From contig JBPQGU010000016.1 in assembly GCA_051362555.1 (NCBI GenBank), forward strand, positions 1,798,001 through 1,862,000: DNA of 64,000 nt, read 5' to 3'. Position numbers and translations under genes: made by a program. The notes under the pieces are model-generated. The model had not been told where the DNA came from. It saw only the letters and a list, made by a program, of their open reading frames with translations, and did no database searches. The stretch comes from Lingula anatina (Eukaryota > Animalia > Brachiopoda). Below are positions 506 through 54,929 of this stretch, in pieces. Each line of letters begins with the position of its first letter. Position 1 is the first letter of the stretch.

Positions 506-1531
506 TCATAGATGCTGGTATATGTCAATGTTATCAAACGGTACGGTACGGTTCAATGATTCAGCCAGCTAAAATTCCAAAGAGGGACCACTGGTGTGAT
601 TTTTTTCAGAAATTAAAAGGGGGGGTTAGAACCCCCCTGACACCCCCTGAATCTGTCACAGCATAATATTACTTATTATATTTTGTAGTTATAAGTCTTT
701 TACTAGATTATTTTTTATTTTTACTTTACATGTGATTTAATTCCATTCGTGTGCAAGTTCTGTGAGCAACCACTCAAGCATATTTATATTTCAGATTTTG
801 AGTATTGTATGCAGAATTACTGATAGACCACTTACTTTAAAAGGTTTTTCTTTTAAGGCTCAATCTCATGTGTCACTTCCGGCTTAAATTGACCGGACTT
901 GGTACATGTAGCATTTTAGGAGGTCCCATAACTTGTGTGTGTGTGTGTGTGTGTGTGTGTGGGGGGGGGGGGGGGTAACAGTTCACTGAAAATAAAATCA
1001 TTAAATCCTAGTAAATAAAACTTTATTGGTATCTTATTCAAAATGCGAGTCTGGCGAGTTGAAAGTAACGGATCACCGAGTACAACAACAATGACTTCGT
1101 TTCAGGAAGAAAGGGGAATAAAAGGCTGCATTTACGAGTCAGGACAGGGGAATGGGGGGGGGCTTCACGGATAACGTGAACGTTTCAAGTATTTCGGGAA
1201 AATAAAAAGTGGCTTTCCCGGGTATAGAAAATACCCAGTGGGACCCTTGATTTAGTTCGTTTGTACTGGCTAATATGTGTTAAAACAAAGCTAAATAGGC
1301 ATTTCAACTGAAAGGTACACAAATGAGGATTTTCGTGCCAAAATCATATTTAAGGAGGTAAACGAAAGACAACGACACTGTTGCTATGCTATCTGAATTT
1401 CATATAAACAGCAATATCGTTTTACATAATTTCAAAGAATTTCGAAAGTTAATTTCTTGGGAAATATCGATTCAGTAAAGGGTGGAAAAAGTGCTGCGCT
1501 CTGCATCCTCGTATATCAAAGCTACTGCAGA

Positions 1532-2059
1532 TCAGGATCGAACTCCAAACACGGCGTCCTTGGCGGCCCTTTTCCCGTTCGTGCAAGTACAGGTGACGTC
1601 ATATTTTTCCGTCAAGAACCACCCACTCGTTTTTACACTGAACAAATAATGTAAACATCTTCTTGAATTCTTGTGAACATATTACTTTTTAGATATCTAC
1701 CATATACCTGCTCAGCGATGACCTTATTATAAATATATATTTTTTGACTGGGTTCCCATGCATAGATCGATCCAGATGTACTGTAACTCCCTGGATAGTC
1801 TCACTAAATGGCTATCAAATAACCGGCTTAAATGTCTGCCACGCCTACCGAATCAGCTAGGTTGTAAAGACAATTACCCCCTGACATCTTTATTAGATGT
1901 GACAGACATTTAAGCCAACCAAATTGACAGCAATTAAGTGAGACTCCCCAGGGAGATAGATCGATCCAAATATCTGTGGGAATGGTCCCTTTGTCATTAT
2001 TTTAAAATTAGTAATTCGTTATTTTTCTCAATCATTTATTTCATCACCATTGTTATTAC

Positions 2060-2092
<33 letters not shown>

Positions 2093-3110
2093 TATTATTA
2101 TTGCAAAAGAGGAATGTGTACAGGAAAGCCAGAAATACTCGTGAATATCTGGTGAAAATTATCACAGGACCCTGGTGGATGTTTTGATTGATAGGGAGAC
2201 CTGTAAGAAATAATACGTCCACCACGAACGTTTTTGGATATAGAAGGTTTATGCGTACACCACTGATTTTCAAATTGGCCAGATGATATGCAAAACATAT
2301 CACCCTTTTAAACTTCAAAAACTACATAAGCACATTCTCTATATATTGTTGCGGCGTATTTTTGAAATATAATTTCAAGTCATAAACTGTTATATGCGTT
2401 AAGAAATGTTGACCAAAGTCGAAAACAAAAAATTAAATCTCGGCTCCAAGTTTTTTAAATGGGATATTTTGTTTTTTAATGGGGTTGACCTTATTTAGTC
2501 CGCGGATCAGTAAGCCGGCAGATAATCTGTTCTAAATGCGTTCTAACGGCTTCGCCGACAAAATATGGCCGACCCCACTTGAATGCAAGCCCCGATTGTC
2601 TCCCGTCTTTACGTGCACACGCGCCATTAAACGGAATAAATCTCGGCCCCGAGAAAGAGAAAGCCTATCTACCATCTGTTCTGAATGCGAACTATCTATC
2701 TACGATAGAGAGAGGGGGGCCATTCAAAATAGGAGACTAATTAGTCCAAAGGTCAAATATGGATACAAACTGATGCACCGACTAAATATGGCCGACCACA
2801 TTGCAAAAGCGATGCCGCTGATTCCCGATGGTCTCTTCGCCTACACACGCGCCATTAAAGGGATTAAATCTCGTCTCCGAGGTTTCATTCCTAGGCCCCT
2901 GCAGCGACAGCACGTGTGGAGGCGCGGAGACCATCATGGAACTTACGGTATCGGTTTTGAAATGGGTCGGCCATATTTAGTCGGTCGGTCAGTTAGTACC
3001 CGGACCATCTATTCTGAACAGTCCCTTTTTAGTGGAGTAGACGGCAAGTTTTGTGGTGGGTCGCCATATTTGACACTTGGACTAGTAAGTCACTAATTCT
3101 GAATGGGGCA

Positions 3111-3143
<33 letters not shown>

Positions 3144-3663
3144 CTTACGTACTATATGTACGAGCCGCAGTCCTCTCTACATGAATTTTTACATGCGCAG
3201 CCAAATATGTTACATTTCCCATATGAACAGTAAGGGGTTCTCTGTAATATAAATAGGGAATTAATAACTATCTCTCACTCTCTCTTTCCCCCTCCAACAC
3301 ACGCGCACCGACACTGCACACGCATACAAACCCGCATATGTACAGAATTATTTCCTTACGACCATTTACTTAACGAATTTCAGTAAACAATATAAAAATG
3401 TACCTCTAGCTTTGTTCTACATTTACAACAAAAATGTACGGTATCATTTTCCCCCTGTAATGCTAAGTTCGCCTGATACCAAACATGTGTTGTAATGTGT
3501 TCTGGATGCATTTCCCGAGGAAATACCCTGGTACTAGTAGACTCACCACCGTGCAGTCTGCGCAGAACCTATAACCTTTCTCACGGCAGCAGATAGATTC
3601 AGCTTCCTGCATTACAGCTGCCAGACCCAACGCAACTAAGGCAAAAATGGCAAAGGTAGTCAT
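1532..3663 (-). CDS. Mytimycin/Diedel-like secreted Cys-rich peptide precursor A, 103 aa, EF-hand tail deleted
   Basis: Exons 3663-3547, 3241-3153, 1637-1532, all GT-AG with matching phases (0, 2). Protein MTTFAIFALVALGLAAVMQEAES-ICCREKGYRFCADCTVRTPYCSYGKCNIFGCACKNSCREDCGSYIYVKTSGWFLTEKYDVTCTCTN-GKR-AAKDAVFGVRS*. 12 Cys; TPYC..CNIFGC motif recalled from mytimycin and Diedel. Confidence 0.85.
1750..1990. mobile_element. MITE, 'gatcgatc' family (other copies ~11622-11860, ~16406-16620, ~43505-43730)
   Basis: Imperfect TIRs cccat..atagatcgatc / gatcgatc..atctgtgggaatgg and a shared internal gtgagactcccc; four related copies in the window. Confidence 0.65.
2717..3110. mobile_element. Tourist-like MITE inside (AG)n in intron 2 of gene A (paralogue ~12811-13449; family member 29617-30024)
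   Basis: Ends ggccattcaaaataggagacta...tagtaagtcactaattctgaatggggc are inverted repeats and match 29617-30024. Confidence 0.6.
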
Positions 3664-5859
3664 CTTCTGAAATGTGAAGTGACAACATGGAGTTCACACA
3701 AAGGCAAAAGGAATTTCAGAGGACAGTGGAGCTCAAATCTCTTCTGACAGCAGCTATGCTAAAGTCTAAACTTTCAGAGGCACGCTGACAGTAAAGACGT
3801 GAGATTTCATACGGTGTTCTCTAAAACCCAATGCGCACAAAGGCAATCGGCGTCGTGAAATCCTACTTAATATGCAGCAAGTTAAGAAAATTTCTTGGAC
3901 AGAATTTTTTACCTGAGTAATCCTTGATTACCTCTCTCAGTCTCGAAATGATTGAAAACGTCGACAGTTTGAACTACTTATACCGTTTTCATCAGCAGCG
4001 CAAGCTTCGTCAAGGCATCGATTTTTGAAGTGGAGTACAGGCCTGTCATCTGAAGAGACCAAAGCATGTGAAACGGATATCAAAGTTATGTACTGGTACA
4101 GGTATTTCACTATGATTTACTTAAGTCTGGATTATCATTTACCGATTGGTTCGGCAATGCGCAGAAAAATAATGTGTGTTCGAGACTGATTTTCATTGGT
4201 TGAAATAATTTTCATCAGAAAGACAATTTATCTTTAGGTTATACGCATGCGCATTTTAAAATCTAGTTTTATCTGGTTGAATGTGGTCATTAGACATCTA
4301 ATATATTATAACATCATCGAATTATCAACGAATTAAAGGATTCAGAGGTCTGATGACAAATTTTTACTGAAAACCCCCTATGTTAGGTTTGAAAAAGTGG
4401 TGACACTGTATTCTGTTTAGTTACGCCGGTGGAGTGGAACATATGTTGCTTCTTAACGTACAACAAATAAAATCACAGGGAACATTTGAGGAGCTGGTGC
4501 ACATTTGATATTTGGTCGCGGGTTCGAATTCTTGAAAGTTCTTTGATTATTTGGATCTATTTTTAGGAACAGAATTTTCAAATGAAAGTTTATAAACTTT
4601 TCAAGACTATCGGCATGAGACCATATGTCTTGGATACTGCTGGAGAGAGAGCGAGAGAGAGAGAGATGTATTGCTCGGGTTTCATTTGATGCAAGTAGTC
4701 CTATGATATACTAGAACGAATTAAACTTTATAAGTAGTTCATCGTAACTTTTAATTTTCACACATCTCACCCTATGAATGTATATCACATATTCATCGCG
4801 ATTCTCCATTCGTTCTGCGTTGCATTCCCGTATACATTAGATCAAAGCACCGGTAGCTTCTGCATCAAAAGTTGTTAGTACCAGTATTGTAATGTGCGTT
4901 TTCAGTTACAGATGCATAGTTAAACCCTCATATGTCTAGACATTTACTCCGTCAGTTTAACTGATTTTTTTATGTTGGCAAATATATGGATGGGAAGGTT
5001 GTCAAAGTTTGTAAAATCTGCTTTAAAGTTATAAAAGTTATGTGAGCTTTCTACTAAGGAAGCAGAATTGTTCACATTTCACATAAAACGTCGACATCAT
5101 CTTCAATTTGATTTTAACACCAGTATTGTAATGTGCGTTTTCAATAACAGATGTTTGAGACGCTTTTATAGAAAAAAACTCATATGTCTAGGCATTTCAA
5201 ACCATCAGCTTTTAGATTCTTTTCATGGGTGGAGGTATGAATGTGAAGGTTGTCAGACTTTGTACATTCTGCTTAAAAGTTATCCAAGTTGTGTGGGTTC
5301 AGTACTAAAGAACGAGAATCATTCACATTTCATACAAAACGTCATTATCATCTTTAATTTGATTTTAAGACCACGCGTTTACTAGATTTTTAGAGCAACC
5401 ACACGACCAGGACAGTAAATATAAACCTATCTTCTGCTTATTTGGTGTTTTTCTTTGGTGTCGCCTTCTGTTTTTAGTCCATTTTCCAGCTGCACGACAA
5501 TTTTCTGAGAGGGGTGGGCGAAAAAAGAAGGGACAATTTCCGTTTGCAAGGTAATTTTTGCAGTAATCTGTCTAAATTGAAGCGTTGATATTTACATTTT
5601 TTTTTTTTTTTTTTTTTTTTTGAACAGTTATAATTGTAAAAGTATGATATTCGGTGAAAATGTAAGAATAAAGCTCAATCTACTGGTACCTATATGTTGG
5701 CAGTTCCCAGCTATGGTAACTAATAACTCTTTGGCTATCTAATAACTCTTTGGTCACAGGACCCATAGTATAGTCTATTACAAAATTATAGCCTCCGATT
5801 TAATTTTCCATAGGTCTACTGTATGTATATTGTAGAGGCACTTCTGATACACAAACACA

Positions 5860-6912
5860 CACTGGACAATAGAAGTGTCACCAATACTTTGTGGGAGATA
5901 AATGACTTTGGGATTATATGCTCCTGGTATCATTTTATTAAAATCAAATTTCACAAAAAAAAAAAAAAAAAAATGATAACAAAATATACATTATCCCAAG
6001 ATATGCAGTTTCAGTCCAAAATTAGTAATTAGTGGCATAGCCACGTGACCTAATAATAGCTGCCAGTCTGCGAGGCAAGGATTCATATAATTGTTTGATG
6101 CGTTCAGAGCTTATGCTGGCCATAGCATGAAACACTGAATCTAACAGAGTTTGTCAGCTGGTTGGACGGGCATTTGTCAAAAGTTTTGACATATCATTCA
6201 ACATATTTTCTGTTATGTTTGCATCCGGATTCTGGGCAGGCCACATCACCCTGCAAATGTCCTGTTGGTCAAACCAATCATCAACTGCTCTGGGTCTGTG
6301 GCAAGGAGCATTGTCATCCTGGTGAACAGATGGATAATTTCTGTAACCAAACATGTAGGTAATAGATTGTAGCAAGCCTGACTAAAAAATATCGATATAT
6401 TGCTGGTGATTCCTGTTTCCATTAACCACTATCAATTCGCCCACGCCAGGGATGCTGATGCAGCCCCACACCATGGTGAATATGCTGCTCCGTACATGTG
6501 GTTCAAATGCTTTTACAACCTGGACATCAAAATCAGTCGTCGGTCTTCACGGTCAGTAGTTTTTCTTGGACCAGCCATCAGAGGCAATTTGTCTCTTGAT
6601 CCAGTGTTTCCATACCGAGACCAGACCCTCTGCACGGTTCTGACTGAACAATTCAACTGTTATGCAATTGCTTATATTCCGCCTCTTCAGGTTAATAACT
6701 TGACGTCTATAATCGTTAGTTAATTGCCCGTATCTTTCCATAATGGAGGAAGACAGGAATAACATTTGCTGTACATGTACAAAACCAACAATACAATTCC
6801 ACGGTACATCGGTTTTATACTCATTAGTCACGTTATAAGTAGACCAGGCATTATAACTACCCAAGATCTGCCTACTTTGATTACTCTGATTTAGGTGGTG
6901 ACACTTTTATTG
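5860..6912 (-). mobile_element. Tc1-family DNA transposon, internally deleted pseudogene copy
   Basis: TIR cactggacaatagaagtgtcacc / ggtgacacttttattg; transposase remnant HQDDNAPCHR...WPAQNPDANITEN; lacks ~290 bp present in the 18151-19532 copy. Confidence 0.85.
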
Positions 6913-6916
6913 ACTG

Positions 6917-7650
6917 TAGATCTGTACAACTTTTAAAAATAAATTTAAAAAACTTACTTTAAATAGCTCCATTATTTATTCATCAATATTATTCATAAAG
7001 GGGGTAAAACAACATTCGTGAGTTGAATATTTACTGAAGATTTACTGTTTGGATTTTTTTTTATTTATGAAGCCTTATGAATACTCTTACAGTGACACAA
7101 TATAATGGTGGCCATCTTGGAAAAAGCTGCCTTTAAAACTTTTTTCCACCACTTAGATTTTTCTAGAGTTTTAATTTGTTTAAATTTGGATATAACTATT
7201 TATTTTTGGCAATAAATCCCTACTGATAAAAAAAACTTAAGTCTTAAAGAACCCTTATGAATACACTTGCTGGCGGCCAACATTTCAGGTAAAAATCTGT
7301 ACAAATGACCCTTGCCTGACTTTGACCTCAAGCCAAAGTCCTTTGTGAATAATTCCTATTAAATAAGTTTTTCTCTTCGACAAAGTGTTCTTTGTCTGTA
7401 AGTCTGGATATATTTCAAGGTCTTATAACTCGTTTACTCCAGCAAAATACTCCTAAAATAATAAGACCATCCTTTACCTATAGTGACATAATATATTGGC
7501 GGTCATCTTAAAAAAAATGACTTAGAAACCACTACTTACATTTTAATATGTTAAAATTTGGATATTTAGCTTTCTAAAAAACGTCATTACATTTTTTTTT
7601 TGCAATGAGTCCTGAGTAAGACCAATTTTTTCGCTCAGTTTACTAGCCTA
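6917..7650. mobile_element. Probable non-autonomous DNA transposon with TAG...CTA ends and GGCCATCTTG-type motifs, at the duplication junction
   Basis: Unique to the junction between units; motif content resembles 25728-26621; no TSD established. Confidence 0.3.
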
Positions 7651-8160
7651 ACACAACTTTTAAAACTTTTAAGCAGAATTTACAAATGTTGACAAACCTC
7701 ACATTCATATATTTAACCAGAATTTTTAAAAATCAATTAAACTGACGGGCTGAATGTCCAGACATATGCGGGTTTTTCTATAAAAGCGTCCCATACATCT
7801 GTTATTGAAAACGCACATTACAATACTGGTTCTAACAACTTTTGATTCAGAGACTACTTTGATCTATTTTATACTGGAATGCAATGCAGAATGAATGGAG
7901 AATCGTGTTGAATTATTGAAATACATTCATAGGGGTAAAAAGTGTGAAAATTAAAAGTTACGATGAACAGCTTATAAAACTTAATTCGTTTTCGTTTTTC
8001 GTAGGACTACTTTTATCAAATGAAACCAGTGCAATTAAGATAATTTCTCTCTCTCTCTCTCTCTTCAGCAGTACTCAAGACTTATGGTCTCATACCGGTA
8101 GTCTTGAAACGTTTATACACTTATAGCCTTTCATTTTAAAACTTATCACTAAAAAAAAGA
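7650..8160 (-). repeat. Diverged inverted copy of ~4560-5050 (dispersed repeat)
   Basis: Reverse complement matches ttcaagactatcggcatgagaccatatgtcttgg and gtaaaatctgctttaaagttataaaagtt of unit 1. Confidence 0.75.
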
Positions 8161-8629
8161 TACATTTCGTCTTTCAGTTTTGATTAAAACTATCCTCAAT
8201 CTCAATTCGCCTTTCACTGTACAATTCTCTCTCGTTTTTATCAAAATTATTTAGAACTTTATTTACAGTGTTCAAGGCGTGTAAAAACAGACCATGTAGA
8301 CCTATGGCCACTTTATGTGTCTCTTGGAGACAAATTCCTTCATAGATGCTAGTATATGCGAAGGTTATCAAACGGTACGGTTTAGAACTATGGTTCAGCT
8401 GGCCTAAATTGTAATTTTAAGAGGGACCACTGGTGTTATTTTTTCAGAAATTGAAGGGGGAAGGTTATATTATGTAGTTTTAAGTATTTTACTAAATCAT
8501 TTTTTTTAATTTTCATGTAATTTAATACCATTCGTGTGCAAGTTTATGTGAGCAACCACTCAGACATTATATTTATATTTCAGATATTGTGAACTGCATG
8601 CAGAATTCCTGATAGACCACTTTGTTTAA

Positions 8630-9655
8630 CCCTCAAGAGACCAAGCTATTTTACTGACTGAAATGACCAAGTGGGGTCATCTATGACCCCATTGTGCTCT
8701 GTACAGGGATCCTTATTATAAAAGACTGTTGAGGCTTTATCACACCCATACTACTCCCAGGATTTAAGACAAGTATTTTATAATGATCTAATGTAATAAG
8801 TATTTGGTAATAATACTTTTATTGCATGAAATATCCAAGCACAGATTTTAAGAACAACATTACACCGGTATTTAGACAGTCCTTGTCAGTTTCCACTTGC
8901 AGAAATATTTCTCTTTTTATTTGCTACACTAAATGAAAAAAGTACATTACAAAATTACTTTGAGTAAAAATATTTTGATTTATGTTGAGATAACATCCTG
9001 CTAACTTCAATAAGAATAATTAGCTGACTTGCTGAGTAGGGAATACCCGAATGCTGGTAAGGAAGTCATACTACTCAGAACACATTCAATCAACCTACAT
9101 GTATGTTACTACCACAGCTGTGTATAAAACTAAATCCACACAAACAATTTGTTAATATATGTATAATATGATATCGACAGAATTATTTAGATTTCAGAAA
9201 TACCCGAAAATTGTAACCGTCAAAATGAGAGACCCAGTTATGAGAACAAGTTCCAACAAAGCTACTGAAATTAGATTCAGTGATGCACTATTAGTAACAC
9301 TTCAAGCACAATCTTCACAAACCACTTATTTGTGCCTATGTTTTGGGCACACTGGCTGGTTGCATGAAGCACATGCATGTCCTGTCAGTGTTGCTTGGGC
9401 AAAACATTTGAATAAAACTTAAAAACTAATATGTAAAAACCAATGCTTCTCTTTGGGGTCATAAATGACCCCACAAGAGTTTTTGATGTATACGCCACAC
9501 TAATTGGTTGATCCCTACAAAAAACTGTGAAAGTGTGTAGGATTAGTAGACTGACAAACTCATGCAAGGAAAGAAAATTCGAATAAAAAATAAAGAGATG
9601 GCACATTAAATCATATGGCTGGGGTCGTAAATGACCCCACTCGGTCACTTGAGGG
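8630..9655. mobile_element. Non-autonomous piggyBac-like element
   Basis: TTAA on both sides (8626-8629, 9656-9659); TIR CCCTCAAG(A/T)GACC(A/G)AG; subterminal palindromes ggggtca..tgacccc; empty single-TTAA site at 837-840 in unit 1. Confidence 0.9.
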
Positions 9656-9741
9656 TTAAAAGGTTATTCTTTTAAGGCTCAAGCTCGTGTGCCACTTCCG
9701 GCTTAAATTGCCCGTACTTGGTAGCAGTTTAGAAGGTCCCT

Positions 9742-9772
<31 letters not shown>

Positions 9773-10751
9773 GGGGGGGGTGTTCACAGTTCACAATTCC
9801 CAGCAATAAAAACTTAATTAGTATCTCATTGAAAATGCAAGTCTGGGTATAACAACAATGCCTTCGTTTGAATAAGGACGAAGAATAAAAGGCCGCATTT
9901 ACAAGTCGGGGCAGGGGAATGGGGGGCTTCAACGATCACGCTGTGAACGTTTCACGTATTTCGGAAAATAAAACAGTGGCTTTCACGGGTAACCATAATA
10001 CCCAATAGGGCCTTAGATTTAGCTCGTTTGTAACGGCTGATATGGGTTAAAACAAAGATTAATAGGCATTTCAACTTTAAGGTACACAAATGAGGATTTT
10101 CATTCCAAAATCACATTTATGGAGTTATCCTGGGGTAAACGGTATTTATCTTCATTTTTCTTTCCTGACTCTCTCTAGAACTCTGTAACAATTTTGAAAA
10201 AAGGAGATCCAAACAATGTTTCGCACTACAATGCCTCCACTAACAGATATCGCGCGACTTTACAGACAGTGCCAAGATGGCTCACTACCAAGGGTGGGCA
10301 AGGGACGGTGAATATGATTAATTTTTGGCGATATTGATTGAGGCCATTCATCTTTCTATTTATGTTTTAAAAATTATAATTATCCTCAAATAAAAGCAAC
10401 GAGAAGTAATTCATGAACTTAGAATGTGTTTAAATCCCACATCGTATACCTTTAACACAATAATTCCCAACTCCAGATGGACCAGGCTGATGTTGAAATT
10501 TATCACAATATTTTAATGGCAGTTTTTTTCCTACACCACCTTAAGCGAGCCTCACACTTGATGACCTTTTGACATATAAAAAAATCATAAAACCTGGCCA
10601 TTAATATGTTTTACCTGTTTGGTTTCTTTGCTTAATCAAGAAGTTCTACTCTACAACTTCTTGGTTTAACTCATGCATTGACTTTGTGGAATATTCCGGT
10701 GCTTGAAAATTGATGCTTATTTTAGAATAATACTTGGGTCTTGGAATCGAG

Positions 10752-10794
<43 letters not shown>

Positions 10795-11068
10795 TCTATT
10801 TATTTATTTATTTATTTAATTTTTTTTAATTTCACCAATCTAAATGTCATAAAATATCTATTAAGTCATAAACGGCTGTTTGGGCATATGCATAAAGCAC
10901 CCTTTCTGTGATAATTGAGAGATATTATAAAAAGCAAGAGAGTAGTTTGCTGCTTTTTGAAGGGGACAAACAGTCAATGAAAAAGGACCACGTTTGGATA
11001 CTGTGTGGTAAGGGAGGTGGAACCTGGCGGAGATGAAGGTCGCCGATGTGCCCATATCGTTTCTCGAT

Positions 11069-11115
<47 letters not shown>

Positions 11116-11353
11116 AGAAAAGATTGCAAGATTGCGTGTCAAAACTCAGTAAACAATAATTATAATAAGTAAATGAAACACAAAGACACTTGTTGCGATG
11201 CTATCTGAATTTCATATAAACAGCAATATTGTTTTACATAATTTCAAAGAATTTCGAAAGTTAACTTCTTGAGAAAGATCGATTCCCAATGATTTTCCAA
11301 ATGTCAAATAAGGATGGAAAAAGTGCTGCGCTTTTCATCCTCGTATATCAGAG

Positions 11354-11913
11354 CTACTGCAGATCAGGATCGAACTCCTGTCGGTCAATGTTGTCGTCAC
11401 CATTGGCGTCTTCGTCGTCAAACACTGCATCCTTCTCGGCCCTTTTCCCGCGTGTGCAAGTACAGGTAACGTGGTATTTTTCCCCAAGAATCACCCACTC
11501 GTTTTTAACACTGAACAAATAATGTAAGCATGTTCTTGAATTCTTGTGAACATATACTTTTTCGGATATCTACCATATACCAGCTCAGCGATGACTTTAT
11601 TACTTATTTCGATTCTTTGACTGGGTTACATGCCTAGATCAATCCATCTGGATCGATCTACTTGATCTCCCTGGATAGTCTCACTAAATTGCTTTCAAAT
11701 AACTGGCTTGAATGTCTGCCACGGCTACCGAATCAGCTAGGGGGTAAAGACAATTACCCCCTTACATCTTTATTAGATGTGACAGACATTTAACCCGATC
11801 AAGTTGACAGCAATTTAGTGAGACTCCCCAGGAGTCCTAATATCTGTGGGAATGGTCCCTTTGTCATTATTTTCAATTTTGCAATTCGTTATTTTTCTCA
11901 ATCATTATTATTA

Positions 11914-11954
<41 letters not shown>

Positions 11955-12762
11955 GCAAAAAAAGGAATGTGTACAGGAAAGCCAGAGTAATACTCGTGAA
12001 TATCTAGTGAAAATTATCACAGGACCCCGGTAGATGGTATGATTGATAGGGAGACCTCTAAAATATAATACGTCCACCACTAGGGTTCTTGGATATAGAT
12101 GGTTTCCGTGTACACCACTGCTTTTCAAATTGGCCAGATGATATGTAAAACATGCACCTAATGCGCAGTTCACACTAGCAGTATGGTTAACAAAGTTCAA
12201 CAATATGTCACCCTTTTAAACTTCAATAACTACATAAGTAAACTCTCTTTATATTGTTGCGGCGCATTTTTAAAATTCCATTTCAAGTCTTAAACTGTTA
12301 TATGCATTATGGAATGTTCACCAAAGTAGAAAACACCAATTCCTACGTTTTATTTCTGAATAATAACTCCATACTTTATGAATGCCCGTGGTGCAGGCTC
12401 CTCGAGTCTTTGAGTACGACGTCACGCGCAATCCATCTTAGCATCTATTTACGGCCAAGCTGAAAAGGGAACCTTTGGAGCAGATGATCCACAGACCAAG
12501 AGCGCTTACATGTGGACCAACCCGCGGATTAAATCTCGACTCCACAATTTTAATTGGGTTGACCTTATTCAGTCCGCGGATCAGTAAACCCGCAGATAAT
12601 ATGTTCTGAACGCGCTCTAACGCCGACAAAATATGGCCGACCCCACTTAAAAGCAAGCCCCGATGCTTCCCCGTCTTTACATGCACACGCGCCATTAAAC
12701 GGATTTGGCTCCGAGATAGAGAGAACCTATCTACCCTCTGTTCTGAATACGCACTATCTATC

Positions 12763-12812
<50 letters not shown>

Positions 12813-14019
12813 CCCGTTCAAAATAGGGGACTATATTTAGTCCAAAGTCAAATATGATCGCCCCAGTTGAATAGTGTACTTTCCCACGGGATATCTATTT
12901 ATTGTCTATGGGGTCCTGCACAATACAGGGGCGGATCCAAAAATATTTTCTGACAGTCTTCCATCTTTGTTGACACATTCTCTTTTTTTTACCGTCTTCC
13001 GACAGAAAAAGAATACATGTAGATACTCGTCAATGTTAACTTGAAAATCTGACCGTCTTCCGGAAGACCCAGAAGACGGCCTCAATCCGCCCCTGCAATA
13101 GATCATCCGAATACTAACATATCCACCGATTATTATGGCCGTCCACATTGCAAAAGCGATGTCGCTGATTCCCGACGGTCTCTTCGCCTACACACATTAA
13201 ATGGATTAAATCTCGTCTCCGAGGTTTCATTGCTAGGCCCCTGCAGCGACAGCACGTGTGGAGGCGCGGAGACCATCATGGAATTGGCGGTATCGGTTTT
13301 GAACTGGGTCGGCCATATTTAGTCGGCCGATCAGTTAGTACCCAGACCATCTATTCTGAACAGTCCCTTTTAGTGGCGTAGACGGCAAGCTTTGTGGTGG
13401 GTCGCCATATTTGACACTCGGACTTGTAAGTCACTGATTCTGAATGGGACGAGAGAGAGAGAGGGGGAGAGAGAGAGAGAGAGAGAGTGTGTGTTTCTTA
13501 CGTACTCTGTGACCGGGCCGCAGTCAGTTCTACACGGACTGGTACATGCGCAGCCAAATATGTTACATTTCCCATATGAACAGTAAAAGAATGTCTGTAA
13601 TGTAAATAGGGAATTAAAAATCTTTTCCTTTCTCTTTTCCCCCTCCAACACATCGCACCGACACTGCACACGCACACAAACCCACATATGTACAGAATGA
13701 TTTCCTTTTACTTACGACCATTTACTTAGCGAATTTCAATAAACAATATAAAAATAGACTTCTAGCTTTGTTCTACAGTTATTACTAAAATATACGGTAT
13801 CATTTTCCTCCTGTAATGCTAAGTTCCCTGATACCAAACATGTGTTGTAAATGTGTTCTCAATGCATTTCCCGAGGAAATACCCCGGTACTAGTAGACCC
13901 ACCCACGTGCAGTCTGCGCAGAAATTATACCCAATCTGATAGCAGCAGATAGATTCAGCTTCTTGCATTACGGCGGCCAGACCCAATGCAACTAACGCAA
14001 AAATGGCAAAGGTAGTCAT
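11354..14019 (-). CDS. Mytimycin/Diedel-like secreted Cys-rich peptide precursor B, 120 aa, with C-terminal EF-hand
   Basis: Exons 14019-13903, 13594-13506, 11510-11354. Protein MTTFAIFALVALGLAAVMQEAES-ICCYQIGYNFCADCTWTFFYCSYGKCNIFGCACTSPCRTDCGPVTDVKNEWVILGEKYHVTCTCTR-GKR-AEKDAVFDDEDANGDDNIDRQEFDPDLQ*. 12 Cys; canonical EF loop DANGDDNIDRQE. Confidence 0.88.
12926..13095. mobile_element. MITE with CAGGGGCGGAT TIR and 5-bp TSD (hAT-like)
   Basis: caata|caggggcggat...atccgcccctg|caata; absent from unit 1. Confidence 0.8.
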
Positions 14020-15480
14020 CTTCTGAAATGTGAAGTGACACTATAGAGTTGACACAAAGACACTTTTTTAAGGAATTTTAGAGGACAGTGGAGCTCAAAT
14101 CTCTTCTGTCAGCAGCTATGCTTTTAAACTTTCAGAGGCACGCTGACAGTAAAGACATGAGATTTCATACGATGTTCTCTAAAACCCAATGCGCACAAAG
14201 GCAATCGGTTTCGTGAAATCCTACTTAGTAAACAGCAATTTAAGAAAATTTCTTGGACAGAATGTTTTACCTGAGTAATCCTTGTTTACCTCTCTCAGTC
14301 TCGAAACGATTGAAAACGTCGACAGATTGATCTACCTATACCGTTTTCATCAGCAGTGCAAGCTTCGTCAAGGCCTCGGTTTCTGAAGTGGAGTACAGGC
14401 CTATGATCTGAAGAGATCAAAGCATGTGGAACAGACATCAAAGTTATGTACTGGTACAGGTATTTCACAATGATTTACTTAAGTCTGGATTATCATTTAC
14501 CGACTGCTTCGGCAATGCACAGAAAAATAATGTGTGTTCGAGACTGATTTTCATTGGCAGATATCATTTTCATCAGAAAGACAATTTATCTTTACGTTTT
14601 ACGCATGCGTATTTTAAAATCTTCTAGCTTTGTTCTACATTTATTACTAAAATGTACGGTATCATTTTCCTCCTGTAATGCTAAGTTTGCTGATACCAAA
14701 CATGTGTTGTAAATGTGTTCTCAATGCATTTCCCGAGGAAATACCCCGGTACTAGTAGACCCACCCACGTGCAGTCTGCGCAGAAATTATACCCAATCTG
14801 ATAGCAGCAGATAGATTCAGCTTCCTGCATTACAGCTGCCAGACCCAACGCAACTAACGCAAAAATGCCAAAGGTAGTCATCATCTGAAATGTGAAGTGA
14901 CAAAATGGAGTTGACACAAAGGCAAAGGGAACTTCAGAGGACAGTGGAGCTCAAATATCTTCTGTCAGCAGTTATACTTTTAAACTTTCAGAGGCACGCT
15001 GACAGTAAAGACGTGAGATTTCATACGGTGTTCTCTTAAACCCAATGCGCAAAAAGGCAATCGGTGTCGTGAAATCCTACTTAGTATACAGCAATTTAAG
15101 AAAATTTCTTGGACAGAAATTTTACCTGAGTAATACTTGATTACCTCTATCAGTTTCGAAATGATTGAAAACGTCGGCAGATTGAACTATTTATGCCGTT
15201 TTCATCAGCAGTGCAAGCTTCGTCAAGGCCTCGGTTTCTGAAGTGGAGTGCAGGCCTACAATCTGAAGAGATCAAACCATTTGAACGGACATCAAAGTTA
15301 TGTACTAGTAGAGGTATTTCACAATGATTTAGTTAAGTCTGGATTATCATTTATCGACTTGTTCGGCAATGCACAGAAAAATAATGTGTGTTCGAGACTG
15401 ATTGTCATTGGTTGAATTCATTTTCATCAGAAAGACAATTTATTTTTAGGTTTTACGCATGCGTACTTTAAAATCTAGTT
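13760..15480. repeat. ~860-bp direct tandem duplication covering coding exon 1 and the upstream region of gene B
   Basis: ttctagctttgttctaca starts both ~13760 and ~14622; sequences colinear to ttttaaaatct. Confidence 0.9.
14765..14884 (-). CDS. Duplicated first coding exon of peptide gene B (signal peptide plus CC...CxxC)
   Basis: MMTTFGIFALVALGLAAVMQEAESICCYQIGYNFCADCTW with intact tttcag acceptor and gtgggt donor; no exon 2 or 3 of its own. Confidence 0.7.
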
Positions 15481-16303
15481 CTATCTGGTTGAACGTGAAC
15501 ATTAGACAAAAAATCATCGAATTATCAACGAATTAAAGGATTCAGAGGTCTGGTGACATTTTTTTTTTACTGCAAACTTCCTAAATTAGGTTTGAAAAAG
15601 TGGTGATACTGTATTCTGTTTAGTTACGCCGGTGGAGTGGAACATGCTTCTTAACGCACAACAAACAAAATCACAGGAGCTGGTGCCGTTTGATATCTGT
15701 TCGCGGGTTCGAATTCTTGAAAGTTCGTTGATTATTTGGATCTATTTTTAGGTACAGAATTTTCAAATGAAAGTTTATAAACTTTTCAAGACTATCGGCA
15801 TGAGACCATATGTCTTGGATACTGCTGGAGAGAGAGAGCGAGAGAGAGAGAGAGATGTATTGCTCGGGTTTCATTTGATGCAAGTAGTCCTATGATATAC
15901 TAGAACGAATTAAATTTTATAAGTAGTTCATCGTAACTTTTAATTTTCACACATCTCACCCTATGAATGTATATCACATATTCATCGCGATTCTCCATTC
16001 GTTCTGCATTGCATTCCCGTATACATTAGATCAAAGCACAGGTAGCTTCTGCATCAAAAGTTGTTAGTACCAGTATTGTAATGTGCGTTTTCAGTTACAG
16101 ATGCATAGTTAAACCCTCATATGTCTAGACATTCAGTCCGTCAGTTTAACTGATTTTTTTTATGTTGGCAAATATATGGATGGGAAGGTTGTCAAACTTT
16201 GTAAAATCTGCTTAAAAGTTATAAAAGTTATGTGAGGTTTCTACTAAGGAATGTGCGTTTTCAATAACAGATGCTTGAGACGCTTTTATAGTAAAAACCT
16301 CAT

Positions 16304-17437
16304 CGGCCGATTTCATAAAGGAGGTTTAACTAAACCTAGTTTAAGGCTAAAACCTAGGCTAGCAAAACCTGGTCTAACTCAAGACCTAAATTGCATTTCA
16401 CAAACACCCCATTTCCATAGATTAGATCGACCTACTTTAGATCGACCTAACTCCCTGGGGGTTCACGCTAAATAGCTGTCAGCCGGGCGGACACGAAAGT
16501 TGATTATCCCCTTACAGCTTGTAGTAGGCAGGACGGACATTTAAGTCGAATTATCTGAAAGTAATCTAGTGAGACTCCCCGCGGGGATAGATCGATCTAA
16601 AATCTATGGGAATAGAGCCTAACAGTGTAGAAAAGCCAGAAAACCAGGTTAAGCTAAACCAGTTTTAACTTGTCCTTGACCTCCTGTTGAATGTAACAGG
16701 ATTACATAGACGAAGAAATCACTGAACTGTGTCAATCAGGTAGGCGTAAATGAATAGATGACACACACTAGTGTTGAAGCAGATAAGCTGTTTAGCTCAT
16801 ATGAGAAAATACTTTGGAAGTAACGAGCACGTGAAAATGAGCCGTAAGAAAGCGGAGAATTTTTCTGCTGAAGAGAAGGGGTACATCTCAGAACTAATAA
16901 AGGAGAAGTCCAACATCACTGAATAAAATAATGATGTCACATCAAGTCAAAGAAAAAATGAGGCGTGGAAAGAAATTCTAACAAGATTGTCAGCACATTT
17001 TCCACAAGCCGGGAAAAGAACTGAAAGGCAGGTGAAAGACTTCTGGAAACGAGCGAAAATGAAAGCTAAGAAAGAATTTGCAAATGTTAAAAAAACTGCA
17101 AAAAAGACTGGAGGGGGGCCAAAAGAGGTTGAATTAAGTCAAGAAAATCAAGCAGTGATAGATCTTTTTTCCAAGCTACAGAGTTAAACCTGGGTCTGAC
17201 CAGGTTTATTTTTAGACTTGGTCTGAGTCCATAATCCGGGTATCAAAAACTTAGACCTCAATTATGAAACACAATCCTGTCTAGACCAGGTTTAGAATGA
17301 TGTTAAGACAGGTTTTACTAGACCACTGGTCCAATACTAAAACCTCCTTTATGAAATACAGGCAATCCCTAAACCTGGTCTACTTGGTCTCACTTTAGAG
17401 CAGGTTTAACTTTAAACTTCCTTTATGAAATCGGTCG
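16304..17437 (+). mobile_element. PIF/Harbinger deletion derivative
   Basis: TIR cggccgatttcataaaggaggtttaa / ttaaacttcctttatgaaatcggtcg; 3-bp TSD CAT; empty site ctcatatg at ~5180 in unit 1; carries a Myb/SANT ORF and a nested MITE. Confidence 0.88.
16837..17187 (+). pseudogene. Harbinger Myb/SANT-like DNA-binding protein, in-frame stop and truncated
   Basis: MSRKKAENFSAEEK...ITE*NND...KNEAWKEI...RTERQVKDFWKRAKMKAKK...KTGGGP: NF, AW, RT..Q...W and TGGG motifs of MSANTD/Harbinger ORF2. Confidence 0.8.
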
Positions 17438-18150
17438 CATATGTCTAGGCATTTCAAACCATCAGTTTTTAGATTCTTTTTATGGGTGGAGATATGAATG
17501 TGAAGGTTGTCAGACTTTGTACATTCTGCTTAAAAGTTATCGAAGTTGTGTGGGTTCAGTACTAAAGAACGAGAATCATTCACATTTCATACAAAACGTC
17601 ATTATCATCTTTAATTTGATTTTAAGACCACGCGTTTACTAGATTCTTAGAGCAACCACACGACTAGGACAGCAAATATAAACCTTTCTTCTACTTATTT
17701 GGTGTTTTTCTTTGGTGTCGCCTTCTGTTTTTAGTCCATTTTCCAGCTGCACGACAATTTTCTGAGAGGGGTGGGCGGAAAAAGAAGGGACAATTCCCGT
17801 TTGCAAGGTAATTTTTGCAGTAATCTGTCTAAATTGTAGCGTTGATATTTACATCTGTTTTTTTTTTTTTTTTTTTTTTTTTTTTTGTTTTTTTTTTCTT
17901 TTTTTTTTTTTTGAACAGTTATAATTGTTAAAGTATGATATTCGGTGAAAATGTAAGAATAAAGCTCAATCTACTGGTACCTATATGTTGGCAGTTCCCA
18001 GCTATGGTAACTAATAACTCTTTGGCTATCTAATAACTCTTTGGTCACAGGGCCCATAGTATAGTCTATTACAAAATTATAGCCTCCGATTTAATTTTCC
18101 ATAGGTCTACTGTATGTATATTGTAGAGGCACTTCTGATACACAAACACA

Positions 18151-18254
18151 CACTGGACAATAGAAGTGTCACCAATACTTTGTGGGAGATAAATGACTTT
18201 GGGATTAAATGCTCCTGGTATCATTTCATTTCATTTTATTAAAATCAAATTTCA

Positions 18255-18300
<46 letters not shown>

Positions 18301-19532
18301 ATGATAACAAAATATACATTCTACCAAGATATGCAGTTTCAAGTCCAAAATTAGTAATTAGTGGCATAGCCACGTGACCTAATAATAGCTGCCAGTCTGT
18401 GAGGCAAGGATTCATATAATTGTTTGATGCGTTCTGAGCTTATGCTGGCCATAGCATGAAACACTGAATCTAACAGAGTTTGTCAGCTGGTTGGACGGGC
18501 ATTTGTGAAAAGTTTTGACATATCATTCCACACATTTTCTGTTATGTTTGCATCCGGATTCTGGGCAGGCCACATCACCCTGCAAATGTCCTGTTGGTCA
18601 AACCAATCATCAACTGCTCTGGGTCTGTGGCAAGGAGCATTGTCATCCTGGTGAACGGATGGATAATTCCTGTTACCAAACATGTTAGTAAAAGATGGTA
18701 GCAAGCCTGACTCCAAAATATCGATATATTGCTGGTGATTCCTGTTTCCATTAACCACTATCAATTCGCCCACGCCAGGGATGCTGATGCAGCCCCACAC
18801 CATGGTGAATATACTGCTCCGGGTTCGAAAATTCAGTGCATGTGGTTCAAATGCTTTACCAGCGGTTAGCCAGCATCGTACCCATCTGTCATCAGATGTC
18901 AGACCAAAGCGACACTCATCAGAAAAAAATATATAGGACCAATTGTCATGAAATGTCCAGTTCCAGAAACTGTTGACCCTAGTTCACTCTACGTTGCCTG
19001 TTTTGTAACGATATAAGAGGTTTCAGTCTTGCTACCCTGCTGTACACTCTCTGAGCATGTAACCTACGCTTTTTATGTATGAAATTGTTCCACTGTGTTG
19101 TCAACTGGCAAGCAATGTCGAACTTTTACAACCTGGACATCAAAATCAGTCGTCGGTCTTCACGGTCAGTAGTTTTTCTTGGACCATCCATCAGAGACAA
19201 TTTGTCTCTTGATCCAGTGTTTCTTTACCGAGACCAGACCCTCTGCACGGTTCTGACTGAACAATTCAACTGTTATTCAATTGCTTATATTCCGCCTCTT
19301 CGGGTTAATAACTTGACGTCTATAATCGTTAGATAGTTACCTGTATCTTTCCATATTGGAGAAAGACAGGAATAACATTTGCTGTACATGTACAAAAGCA
19401 ACAATACAATTCCATGGTACATCGGTTTTATACTCATTAGTCACAATATAAGTAGACCAGGCATTATAACTACCCAAGATCTGCCTACTTTGATTACTCT
19501 GATTTAGGGGGTGACACTTTTATTGGCCAGTG
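18151..19532 (-). mobile_element. Tc1-family DNA transposon, near full length, defective
   Basis: TIRs cactggacaatagaagtgtcacc / ggtgacacttttattggccagtg; MVWGCIS...QDDNAPCH...WPAQNPDANITENVW DDE motifs; frame broken upstream. Confidence 0.9.
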
Positions 19533-20005: not shown

Positions 20006-20938
20006 ATGTCTCGCACAGTTATTTAATCTCGGTCTAATTCAACCGGTCGAGGGACGATGCGTGGGGATCCGTGTGAGAGGCTGAGAGACCATTAAGGGAT
20101 TATAAGCGGTCTTCCTTTCATGAAGGTCCGCCATATTTAGGTCTCGGCCTTACTTGACCTCGGCTCTTCTCGGTGTGAATGCAAGCTCTCTTAGTAACAT
20201 ATATGTTTTGGCCAATATTGAGGCATAATTTTAAGGTAAAAACGAAGAAATGTGTTTTTAAATACTCAGTGAAATATAAAGATAGCCAGATATACATTTT
20301 CTAAAAGCATAGTTTCCAGCATTGTACTAACAGGGACCTATTATATATACATGTAGTATGTTAGTATATAGGTCCCTGTACGTTACTACAAGGTATTTCT
20401 TTTTTTTAATCCTATACATACCGTATTTTCGTGTTAACTATTAATAAATAAATATTTCAATTTATAAAAGTCTTCTTGCAAATTGTTTCATAACAATATA
20501 TATATATATATTGTCAACTTTCAAATCCAATGTTTATCCAACGTATTATCAACGTTATGGTTCAACGTAGTATCAACGTTAAAACAACATAATTTGCCCG
20601 CTGGGTACTCAATACTAAAACCGCCGAGGTGTGAACAGCTGTGGACGTCATCGCGCTCTTCAGCCTCAAAGGTGAAACCGAACGTTATCGCAGTGCAAAA
20701 CCAAAAGAAAATAAAAGCATCCGGATTCATCTTACAAGGAACGTACAGAGCATCACTTTCAATGAATACGACCCAACTTGTTTTGATTCTGTAGTTTTTC
20801 CGGCATAACAGCACGTCATACCACCTGTTAACCGTGTTCGGTAGAAAAACGATATCTCCTCGGCGGAATTATTTGCCAAATGTGTTTTACTCAAAATTCC
20901 CTTGACTGCAATCGCACCAGTATTTGGACACTTGGATG

Positions 20939-20971
<33 letters not shown>

Positions 20972-21293
20972 TTCTCTCCTCTTATGGTCTCGCTAAAAGT
21001 AAACCCCGCCTGTTGTGAACCGCCTCTGACCCCACTGTAGGCCTACTATTGAATATCATGGGTAAAGCCTAAATCAATCTTAGTATAAAACCAAGTCCGA
21101 GCTCCGAGTCGGGTTGTCAAACACGACTTCGTGTACACCATGAACATAACCGTTCATGTCGGGGACTGGGGTTGCGTGGGCTAAAATGCGGCACCCGGAT
21201 TATGGATTGGGACAGCAGGTCTACACATGTACTTCCAATCTGGCGCTCTCCGTGACGAGGTTAAAAGTTTCCATCTGATCACTCGGTATCAAC

Positions 21294-21388
21294 GGAGCTG
21301 TCGTGGCTGCGTGGTAACTCTGCTGTCTATCAAACAAGCGCACACCTGGACGCTGGTTCGAGTCACAGCAGCTGCTGTGTCACTTTTT
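21294..21388 (+). ncRNA. Candidate Pol III small RNA, vault-RNA-like, copy 1
   Basis: A box TGGCTGCGTGG (21304-21314), B box GGTTCGAGTC (21355-21364), T5 terminator; 5' agctgtcgtggct can pair with 3' agtcacagcagct. Confidence 0.4.
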
Positions 21389-21459
21389 GCCAGAGTTAAT
21401 TTTTAGAAATTGCGATTGATTACTATAAGAGGAAACTCGCACGTACGGAGGGTGGGCGG

Positions 21460-21660
21460 GTCAGTCACGGAGCAGTCGGTATCGTGCATGGATGCAAATG
21501 AGACATCCAAAGCGTCTTCAACCTTGGTAACGCATGGTCACGGGTTCGAGTCCCGGATGAGGCACGTCAGTCCATCACTGCAACGACCTGGCCCCTGAAT
21601 CGGGAAGTCACGAGACGAGAACGAATGAGGGCGCTCGTGGACTTAGCAAATTACCTTTTT
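21460..21660 (+). ncRNA. Candidate tRNA-derived Pol III transcript (~200 nt), copy 1 (others 22851-23051, 25240-25440)
   Basis: tataag ~35 nt upstream; A-box-like ggagcagtcggta; B box GGTTCGAGTCCC in a T-arm-like stem; hairpins ggatg/catcc and cacgag/ctcgtg; T4-5 terminator. Not a canonical cloverleaf. Confidence 0.35.
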
Positions 21661-22682
21661 GCATAATAATACGGTATACTTTAGAAAGTTTGCATCTGCG
21701 TCGGCAATTGTATTTTCTTTCTCTTCAGTTTAAAGCCCTTATATTGGTGCCACAGATCTGGAACTTAAATTGAGCTATAACCAACTCCGTAGGGCTTGCA
21801 TTTCATCAAAATGTGCTACATGTATCTTTTTGGTGGGATTATCAGAGAGAAAACTTTTGATTTTTTACAAAAGTCGCGTCACCTCTACTCCTTTTATCAG
21901 GCACACGTTTTGTATTTTTATGCCCCTCCTTTCCTATATTAGGCCTTTGCTTCTCAAGACTGTTCATATGTTCATAAAGTACCCGGGGCAAGTCCACAGT
22001 CGACATTGGAAAGTGTAAAGACTACTCAAAGCTAAAACCGCCGAGGTGTGAAAAGCTGTGGACGTCATCGCGCTCTACAACCTCAAAGGTGAAACCGAAC
22101 GTTATCTCAGTGCAAAACCAAAAGAAAATAAAAGCATCCGAATTCATCTTACAAGGAACGTACAGAGCACCACTTTCAATGAATACGACCCAACTTGTTT
22201 TGATTCTGTAGCTTTGCCGGCATAACAGCACGTCATACCACCTGTTAACCGTGTTCGGTAGAAAAACGATATCTCTTCGGCGGAATTATTTGCCAAATGT
22301 GTTTTACTCAAAATTCCATTGACTGCAATCGCACCAGTAATTGAACACTTGGATGTGTTTTTTTTTTCATTCTCTCCTCTTATGGTCTCGCTAAAAGTAA
22401 ACCCCGCCTGTTGTGAACCGCCTCTGACCCCACTGTACTATTGAATATCATGGGTAAAGCCTTAATCAATCTTAGTATAAAACCAAGTCCGAGCTCCGAG
22501 TCGGGTTGTCAAACACGCTTTCGTGTACACCATGAACTTAACCGTTCATGTCGGGGACTGGGGGGGTTGCGTGGGCTAAAATTATGGATTATGGATTGGG
22601 ACAGCAGGTCTACAAATGTACTTCCAATCTGGCGATCTCCGAGACTAGGTTGAAAGTTTCCATCTGATCACTCGGTATCAAC

Positions 22683-22779
22683 GGAGCTGTCGTGGCTGCG
22701 TGGTAACTCTGCTGTCTATCAAACAAGCACACACCTGGACGCTGGTTCGAGTCACAGCAGCTGCTGTGTCACACTTTTT
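22683..22779 (+). ncRNA. Candidate Pol III small RNA, vault-RNA-like, copy 2
   Basis: Same boxes, stem and terminator as 21294-21388. Confidence 0.4.
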
Positions 22780-23202
22780 GCCAGAGTTAATTTTTAGAAA
22801 TTGCGATTGATTACTATAAGAGGAAACTCGCACGTACGGAGGGTGGGCGGGTCAGTCACGGAGCAGTCGGTAGCGTGCATGGATGCAAATGAGACATCCA
22901 AAGCGTCTTCAACCTTGGTAACGCAAAGTCACGGGTTCGAGTCCCGGATGAGGCACGTCAGTCCATCACTACAACGACCTGGCCCCTGTATCGGGATGTC
23001 ACGAGACGAGAACGAATGAGGGCGCTCGCGGGACTTAGCAAATTACCTTTTGCATAATAATACGGTATACTGTAGAAAGTTTGCATCTGCGTCGGCAATT
23101 GTATTTTGTTTCTCTTCAGTTTAAAGCTCTTATATTGGTGCCACAGATCTGGAACTAAATTGAGCTATAACCAACTCCGTATGGCTTGCATTTCATCAAA
23201 AT

Positions 23203-25071: not shown

Positions 25072-25167
25072 GGAGCTGTCGTGGCTGCGTGGTAACTCTG
25101 CTGTCGTTCAAACAAACACACACCTAGACGCTGGTTCGAGTCACAGCAGCTGCTGTGTCACTTTTTT
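25072..25167 (+). ncRNA. Candidate Pol III small RNA, vault-RNA-like, copy 3
   Basis: Boxes and terminal stem unchanged; substitutions fall in the central loop; T6 terminator. Confidence 0.4.

Positions 25168-46626: not shown

Positions 46627-54929
<8,303 letters not shown>

Follow-up and report, generated by a model that had tools for sequence, protein, structure and literature searches.

An intron-split gene pair of Lingula anatina encoding candidate mytimycin-type peptides with a probable Diedel-like cysteine knot

Introduction

Two genes for cysteine-rich peptides, here termed A and B, were analysed on the minus strand of a 64,000-nucleotide stretch of DNA from the brachiopod Lingula anatina (GenBank assembly GCA_051362555.1, contig JBPQGU010000016.1, positions 1,798,001 to 1,862,000; hereafter the window, to which all coordinates refer). 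A and B are a genuine pair of intron-split genes and, judged from their sequences, are probably duplicated Lingula mytimycin-type precursors that give rise to secreted, disulfide-knotted immune effectors, most likely antifungal or antimicrobial. Kinship with the mytimycins of mussels, as the original prediction had it, is borne out by a shared precursor layout and by the peptide core, which in gene A is identical to the Perpur_1 mytimycin at 22/28 positions from C-A-D-C to C-R and to Mgal_A at 20/32 positions, with equal spacing, from the first to the eighth cysteine (both counted by eye, on published sequences available in part). The disulfide knot itself is likely to be common to the Lingula peptides and to Drosophila Diedel.

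Gene structure and predicted precursors

The coding exons of gene A (3663-3547, 3241-3153 and 1637-1532) join into an open frame of 103 amino acids and those of gene B (14019-13903, 13594-13506 and 11510-11354) into one of 120 amino acids, with GT-AG borders at every intron of both genes. The pair had been described as two complete three-exon genes; the open frames and intron borders stand, but RNA reads place a non-coding exon 0 upstream, giving four exons. The features are as follows.

3913..4105 (5' end approximate), minus strand: gene A exon 0, non-coding, from read depth over 3906-4105 and 19 reads skipping the intron 3667-3912
3547..3666, minus strand: gene A exon 1, ATG at 3663, with the 23-amino-acid leader and CC...C-A-D-C, from the joined frame, reads and alignment to relatives
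3153..3241, minus strand: gene A exon 2, containing C-N-I-F-G-C within the Diedel/mytimycin core, from Pfam Diedel (25.1 bits), PDB 3zzo (E 0.0099) and read depth
1532..1637, minus strand: gene A exon 3, coding part, with the long loop, CxC, G-K-R and an 11-amino-acid tail, from a frame like that of XP_013415003 and loose read ends
14271..14463, minus strand: gene B exon 0 homologue, proximal copy, inferred by homology (92% identity to exon 0 of A)
13903..14022, minus strand: gene B exon 1, ATG at 14019, from the joined open frame
13506..13594, minus strand: gene B exon 2, from Pfam Diedel (21.5 bits)
11354..11510, minus strand: gene B exon 3, coding part, with the indel block, CxC, G-K-R and a 28-amino-acid acidic tail holding one EF-hand loop, from the frame, XP_013415003 and its paralogue P0018

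Both precursors open with a predicted leader whose length of 23 amino acids, as first proposed, is given in agreement by hydropathy and by alignment to relatives rather than by a signal-peptide predictor. The original description of a mature region of about 66 amino acids with 12 cysteines, followed by G-K-R, likewise holds for A and B, which keep their cysteines at identical positions (25, 26, 34, 37, 44, 49, 54, 56, 60, 64, 85 and 87). At the end of exon 2 both genes carry two GT donors 4 nt apart, GTACGT upstream and GTAAG downstream, and only the upstream GTACGT keeps the frame across the exon 2/3 junction; GTAAG was considered as the donor and rejected, since it truncates the A and B proteins (68 and 71 amino acids). 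No relevant Pfam match at E<=1 was obtained for exons 1 and 3. The gene models are argued not to be chance products because exon 2 by itself already exceeds the gathering score of Pfam Diedel and because XP_013415003 is colinear with all three exons.

The two genes differ most visibly in exon 3. Compared with B, gene A has lost 41 nt, which shortened its tail and removed the EF-hand loop. As to the EF-hand originally placed in gene B, the tail fits the PROSITE EF-hand loop pattern but has no Pfam EF-hand match at E<=1. In addition, a +1/-1 indel pair separates 11474-11510 of B from 1602-1637 of A, leaving about nine loop codons of B frame-shifted, with the frame regained before CxC; such a compensated indel in exon 3 of B is a quick route to loop diversification.

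The Lingula family

The nearest relatives of A and B are ten uncharacterised L. anatina RefSeq proteins, which make up a family of at least 10 and whose records bear no functional name. They comprise P0032 (XP_013415003.1), P0018 and P0138 (XP_013398944.1 and XP_013398945.1) and seven further paralogues. P0032 matches the three exons of A and of B in order and scores 22.6 bits against Pfam Diedel; its identity is only 65/103 to A (63%) and 71/120 to B (59%), and A and B are therefore distinct copies. The Lingula relatives share with A and B the arrangement CC-C-x2-C-x6-C-x4-C-x4-C-x-C-x3-C-x3-C-loop-CxC followed by a basic site, and all ten that were examined have 12 cysteines with the last CxC ahead of that site. 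Across 12 Lingula-type sequences, Y43, C44, G47, C49, N50, F52, G53, C54 and C56 are invariant.

Several features once thought to set A and B apart belong to the family at large. The loop before the last CxC, taken in the original prediction as the mark of a divergent branch, is indeed long in A and B (20 residues), but it spans 10-21 residues in the Lingula proteins and is thus a family trait. Gene B does have the 28-amino-acid tail with a single EF-hand loop that had been called distinctive, but XP_013415003, which also has G-K-R, carries a tail of the same length ending in residues matching those of gene B. Unlike A and B, the paralogues P0018 and P0138 keep two EF-hands, the full pair being present in P0018 and P0073, and the tail of gene B is identical at 16/25 positions to residues 150-174 of P0018, the last EF-hand of that two-EF paralogue; it is on this ground read as the remnant of a second EF-hand. 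G-K-R and the 28-amino-acid tail were accordingly rejected as unique features. A glycine precedes the basic site in only 3/12 Lingula-type sequences and also, in the published material available, in several mussel mytimycins such as Mgal_D, Mcal_1, Perpur_2 and Pervir_1, so that it does not mark the A/B branch as had been supposed.

In a quick tree (93 rows, 55 columns), from which 45 rows without CC or of excessive length had been dropped, the 11 Lingula and window rows fell into one group together with one outsider (Shimodaira-Hasegawa-like approximate likelihood ratio test, SH-aLRT, 93), and its deeper branches were unresolved.

Relationship to Diedel

Kinship with Diedel, also part of the original prediction, is upheld at the sequence level. 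Exon 2 alone passes the gathering cut-off of Pfam Diedel (PF13164, 21.3 bits) in both genes, with 25.1 bits for A and 21.5 bits for B, and Diedel is its sole match at E<=10 among PDB sequences (3zzo, E 0.0099). A profile of 80 rows, which contains Diedel-like matches and hence is not independent of Diedel, aligns the eight Diedel cysteines at E 6.4e-14, and Diedel is the only non-calmodulin structure that it matches. According to the available parts of PMC3307722, the N-terminal residues and loop 60-89 make up subdomain 2 of Diedel; four disulfides hold it together, and its Asn-Ile-Phe loop is exposed and was proposed there as a protein-binding patch. The N and F of the N-I-F loop are invariant in the family.

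At the level of structure the resemblance is weaker. The mature region of P0032, modelled with AlphaFold2 as a stand-in for the spliced window proteins (predicted local distance difference test, pLDDT, 83.7; predicted template-modelling score, pTM, 0.65), had Diedel as its top Foldseek match, at E 0.61 and a template-modelling (TM) score of 0.45, and no Foldseek match at E<=0.001. With VIA, Diedel was again a weak match (Z 2.8, root-mean-square deviation 2.7, 49 aligned) and the sole chain of 48,161 with Z>=2. Among the 96 of 124 knot proteins (described below) that could be classified, a cysteine soon after the ninth occurs in 14/24 of those in which cysteine replaces Diedel's glycine in C-x-D-G, versus 4/72 of the others. 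A pairing of C37 with C64 may be read from this only as a hint, because 8 of the 14 co-occurring sequences are Lingula kin.

Transcription and splicing

Reads of seven out of nine RNA runs were aligned (X1, X2, X4, X5, X7, X8 and X9, of which X7-X9 belong to study P3). In X7, X8 and X9 the depth at gene A is restricted to exon 2, exon 1 and the non-coding exon at about 3913-4105. Intron 1 is spanned by 107 joined reads in X7-X9, 12 of which skip exactly 305 nt, and the 19 reads across intron 0 skip 246 nt. These reads document expression of the family and agree with the modelled splicing of introns 0 and 1. Between CC and C-x-D-C the X7-X9 reads, which stem from other copies or alleles of the family, show at least four different variable-loop sequences. 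Loose read ends past exon 2 run into exon-3-like sequence in the frame of gene A (K-K/T-S-G by hand translation), and one X7 variant, again by hand translation, also lacks the EF-hand loop. Exon 2 ends in B-type bases in 11/16 covering reads of X8 and 7/11 of X9. X2 yielded 1 read, and X1, X4 and X5 had no depth on the exon-1 bin 14382-14888. Of the splice junctions originally put forward for checking, those of intron 1 are supported by reads of divergent copies, but joints exactly at 3153/1637 or 13506/11510 were absent from the matches listed (15 of 43 rows of joined reads).

Divergence between A and B

The leaders of A and B are identical at 67/72 nucleotides, with 5 synonymous and 0 non-synonymous changes, and the introns are 92% identical, whereas the mature exons are identical at 35/45 and 71/89 positions (mature versus intron, p=4.5e-5). 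Divergence thus amounts to 20-22% in the mature exons and 7-8% in the introns and leader. Over codons 79-92, non-synonymous divergence (dN) is 0.10 and synonymous divergence (dS) 0.46. The conserved leader, these codons, the retention of all cysteines and the cancelling indels of B are signs that favour function.

Range of the knot family

With exons 1 and 2 a profile was built on a scaffold of two viral-contig proteins; searched against 1.84 billion proteins, it retrieved 124 at E<=0.001, of which P0032 is the closest. Thirty of the 124 were looked up by name: eight belong to Lingula, with two more as cluster members, one each is from amphioxus, a fungus and a nematode, and the rest are unnamed or 'hypothetical'; no mytilid record was among these 30. 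Seventeen of the 124 also fit the EF-hand loop pattern, including the amphioxus protein P0115, and the pairing of knot and EF-hand is therefore not limited to mussels and Lingula. Somewhat short of even confidence, we consider that mytimycin may be, rather than an innovation of mussels, one branch of an old and widespread family that has the Diedel subdomain-2 knot as its basis, frequently with a cleavable EF-hand pro-piece, and that has brachiopod, amphioxus, nematode, fungal and viral-contig members, in which Lingula would have independently expanded and diversified an antifungal repertoire and for which the Diedel structure would serve as template of the mytimycin fold.

Other searches bore on the same family. 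The IMG/VR contig L001 has two tandem genes on its plus strand (1372-2049 and 2150-2806), each with a leader and a Diedel knot (29.5 and 30.7 bits) and an extra region of about 150 amino acids without Pfam match; P0015, P0021 and P0055 look similar. A word-indexed protein search with exon 2 of B returned no candidate, a false negative given that P0032 shares an exact stretch of 12 residues. An atlas search with exon 2 gave no usable match; with P0032 it gave EF-hand clusters (best 0.91), most commonly from Mollusca, which is a lead only.

Proposed function and alternative readings

In the mechanism that we favour, the 23-amino-acid leader would direct the precursor into the secretory pathway, where C25, C26, C34, C44, C49, C54, C56 and C60 would build the four-disulfide knot of Diedel subdomain 2 with an exposed N-I-F loop, and C37, C64, C85 and C87 would make two further bonds. 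A furin-type convertase may then cleave at K-R and set free a peptide of about 7.5 kDa with six disulfides, after which the glycine might serve for C-terminal amidation. The acidic EF-hand tail would act as a dispensable pro-piece, for charge masking or calcium-dependent sorting, that is decaying in the A/B subfamily. Fast change of the residues between cysteines, with conserved leader and introns, would fit copies diversifying against microbial targets. Secretion, cleavage, amidation, disulfides and activity of the peptides are inferred throughout.

Several observations weigh against this reading. The Lingula relatives carry one more codon at the exon 2/3 junction than A and B, as do the loose read ends, in agreement with P0032. 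No read was at least 99% like the gene A stretch (0/252 in X7, 0/197 in X8 and 0/271 in X9), so that the reads document transcription of the family rather than of A or B themselves; near-identical reads are, on the other hand, expected to be absent because the runs diverge from the assembly overall (41/2681 X7 reads at least 99% like it). Mature B has a net charge of 0 and that of 3/10 Lingula relatives is negative, whereas membrane-active peptides are typically cationic. The ratio dN/dS of the mature exons exceeds 1 (0.255/0.147) without being significant (p ~0.3), and significant positive selection was rejected at that value; gene conversion of the introns could also produce the contrast between introns and mature exons. 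The knot matches include fungal, nematode, amphioxus and viral proteins, and a knot so widespread does not by itself imply antifungal action. Moreover, the activity of mytimycin, in the sources as available, rests on one purified mussel peptide.

It has to be asked whether A and B might instead be Diedel-like cytokines, whose N-I-F loop binds a host receptor or matrix partner and tunes immune or cell-survival signalling. This appears unlikely, even though the Pfam matches are to Diedel, Diedel is the sole non-calmodulin structure in the family profile, its Asn-Ile-Phe loop was put forward as a binding patch, and some family members are neutral or acidic. The window peptides have no subdomain 1 insert, and RGD, the motif tied to Diedel integrin binding in the available text of PMC9116668, occurs in 0/12 Lingula-type sequences; the pro-peptide layout and fast-changing multicopy loops suit effectors better, and identity to mytimycins exceeds identity to Diedel. 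A role as secreted non-immune proteins, for example of shell matrix, reproduction or mucus, in which the acidic EF-hand tail binds calcium, is very improbable: expression differs between runs, being strong in X7-X9 and almost nil in X1, X2, X4 and X5, and reproductive proteins also change fast, but the EF-hand tail, which several members have in shortened form or lack, sits behind the predicted cleavage site, and both characterised relatives are immune proteins.

The family may also be genuine while A and B are decaying or mis-spliced pseudogenes, which we regard as improbable. The lack of near-identical reads, a second coding junction one codon short of the relatives with a competing donor that truncates both proteins, the deletion in the tail of A, and the frame-shifted block and duplicated exon 1 of B all point in that direction, and 18/106 mussel mytimycin variants are pseudogenes in the parts of PMC8004829 available. 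Nevertheless, A and B keep all 12 cysteines and G-K-R, the leader has accumulated synonymous changes only, codons 79-92 have a low dN relative to dS, and the indels of B cancel exactly; the runs diverge from the assembly as a whole, and X8 and X9 reads do have the B-type end of exon 2. Secreted effectors of mytimycin type thus remain our favoured reading of A and B.

Duplications and neighbouring genes

Gene A sits 1.5 kb from the left window edge, and A and B lie in duplicated units.

506..19525, no strand: segmental tandem duplication, in which unit A (about 506-6912) corresponds to unit B (about 8340-19525), transposon pieces being shared; self-BLAST blocks of 74-96% identity
14621..15476, minus strand: tandem duplicate, about 860 bp long and with 92% identity to 13759-14622 by self-BLAST, in which exon 0 (15317-15126) and exon 1 (14884-14765) of B occur a second time

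The 860-bp copy, carried by gene B, is younger than the segmental duplication, and its exon 1 is identical to the other at 112/117 positions, with one amino-acid change. By tblastn the window contains three copies of exon 1, two of exon 2 and two of exon 3, and no further A/B-type gene. The tandem cluster first reported consequently comes down to two genes, the third unit being a promoter, exon 0 and exon 1 copy only.

Degenerate Tc1/mariner-type pieces at 17438-19525 and 5181-6912 were copied with the duplication (DDE_3 match at 18486-18983), and related Tc1/mariner-type copies are transcribed in the RNA runs. On the plus strand, 16927-17187 has a Myb/SANT-like domain fragment, a domain of the kind found in Harbinger-type transposons. 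A unit of about 1.3-1.4 kb is repeated three to four times at 20606-25707 (93-95% identity), and amid these repeats 23171-23881 reads by eye as the remnant of an open reading frame (ORF) like that of a long interspersed nuclear element, with no Pfam match. An inverted-repeat scan of the window listed mostly poly-A/T runs, and a promoter scan with NF-kB and STAT motifs found only STAT-like TTC-N4-GAA matches, an uninformative result.

A complete multi-exon gene for phosphatidylinositol 4-kinase beta (PI4KB) occupies 46627-54929 on the plus strand. Its query stretch is 99% identical to L. anatina and at most 82% identical to any other match, on which ground a mytilid origin of the window was rejected, and identity to the L. 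anatina RefSeq protein P0142 ranges from 86% in the variable first exon to 100%; the window is therefore taken to derive from Lingula, though from a species or population that has diverged somewhat from that of RefSeq. At 58668-59810, on the minus strand, an intronless ORF with a hydrophobic leader encodes a plant-type (non-animal) heme peroxidase (PF00141, E 6.9e-28). Among its 13 matches at E<=1e-20 (7991 candidates scored) there is no Lingula record; the named animal match is Owenia (40%) and the remainder are unnamed or algal. A transferred gene, or one that varies in presence and absence, is possible.

Comparison with mytimycins and Diedel

Mytimycin, reported as antifungal against Neurospora and Fusarium, appears restricted to Mytilida in the available parts of PMC8004829, a restriction contradicted by a brachiopod family with the mytimycin core, cleavage site and EF-hand tail, which suggests that this type of peptide is not confined to mussels. 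The same parts of that paper describe the structure and disulfide connectivity of mytimycin as unknown, and a table in a 2023 review gives 'no homologs among known AMPs' (antimicrobial peptides); the Diedel link offers a testable scheme for four of the disulfides and suggests the exposed N-I-F loop as functional site. Candidate antifungal peptides would also be gained, from a phylum in which immune effectors have received little study. In the literature searched, no paper joining mytimycin and Diedel was found, and those checked that cover mytimycin and brachiopods or Lingula mention them separately; the 2018 paper on Lingula immunity (Gerdol et al.) may already mention these proteins, though a 2021 paper with a shared co-author keeps the restriction to Mytilida. 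The relatives were already in RefSeq as uncharacterised proteins and the domain is recognised by Pfam. The interest lies in the range of the family and the structural link rather than in copies A and B.

As far as the published mytimycin material was available, mytimycins and A/B are alike in a leader of about 23 amino acids, a cysteine-rich peptide, a dibasic site and a non-coding first exon (PMC8004829), in the D-C-T...T-P-Y-C...C-N-I-F-G-C core and in the final CxC, and mytimycins and the Lingula family are both multicopy and hypervariable. The acidic EF-hand tail has a putative counterpart in gene B and counterparts in the Lingula family but none in gene A, one published precursor likewise being without a tail (PMC8004829); the mytimycin tail is of about 75 amino acids with two EF-hands, against 11 or 28 amino acids in A and B. 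Mytimycins have a core of 10 invariant cysteines with optional pairs, and A and B have 12 cysteines, the first eight spaced as in Mgal_A and the ninth placed, by eye, as in Modiolus, Perna and Perumytilus mytimycins. The tenth lies 3 residues past the ninth, compared with 4 in short 10-cysteine mytimycins, and this spacing combined with the 20-residue loop and CxC occurs in none of the 39 mytimycins of File S4. The hosts differ, a brachiopod as opposed to a mussel, and mature B is not cationic, unlike mytimycins.

Drosophila Diedel (CG11501; 3zzo/3zzr) has in common with A and B the N-terminal CC and the C...Y-C...C-N-I-F-G-C-x-C-x3-C loop, and it is secreted, as is predicted for A and B. The ferredoxin-like subdomain 1 that is inserted after CC in Diedel is missing from the window peptides in the profile alignment, whereas A and B have four extra cysteines and their family a putative cleavable acidic pro-piece that Diedel lacks.

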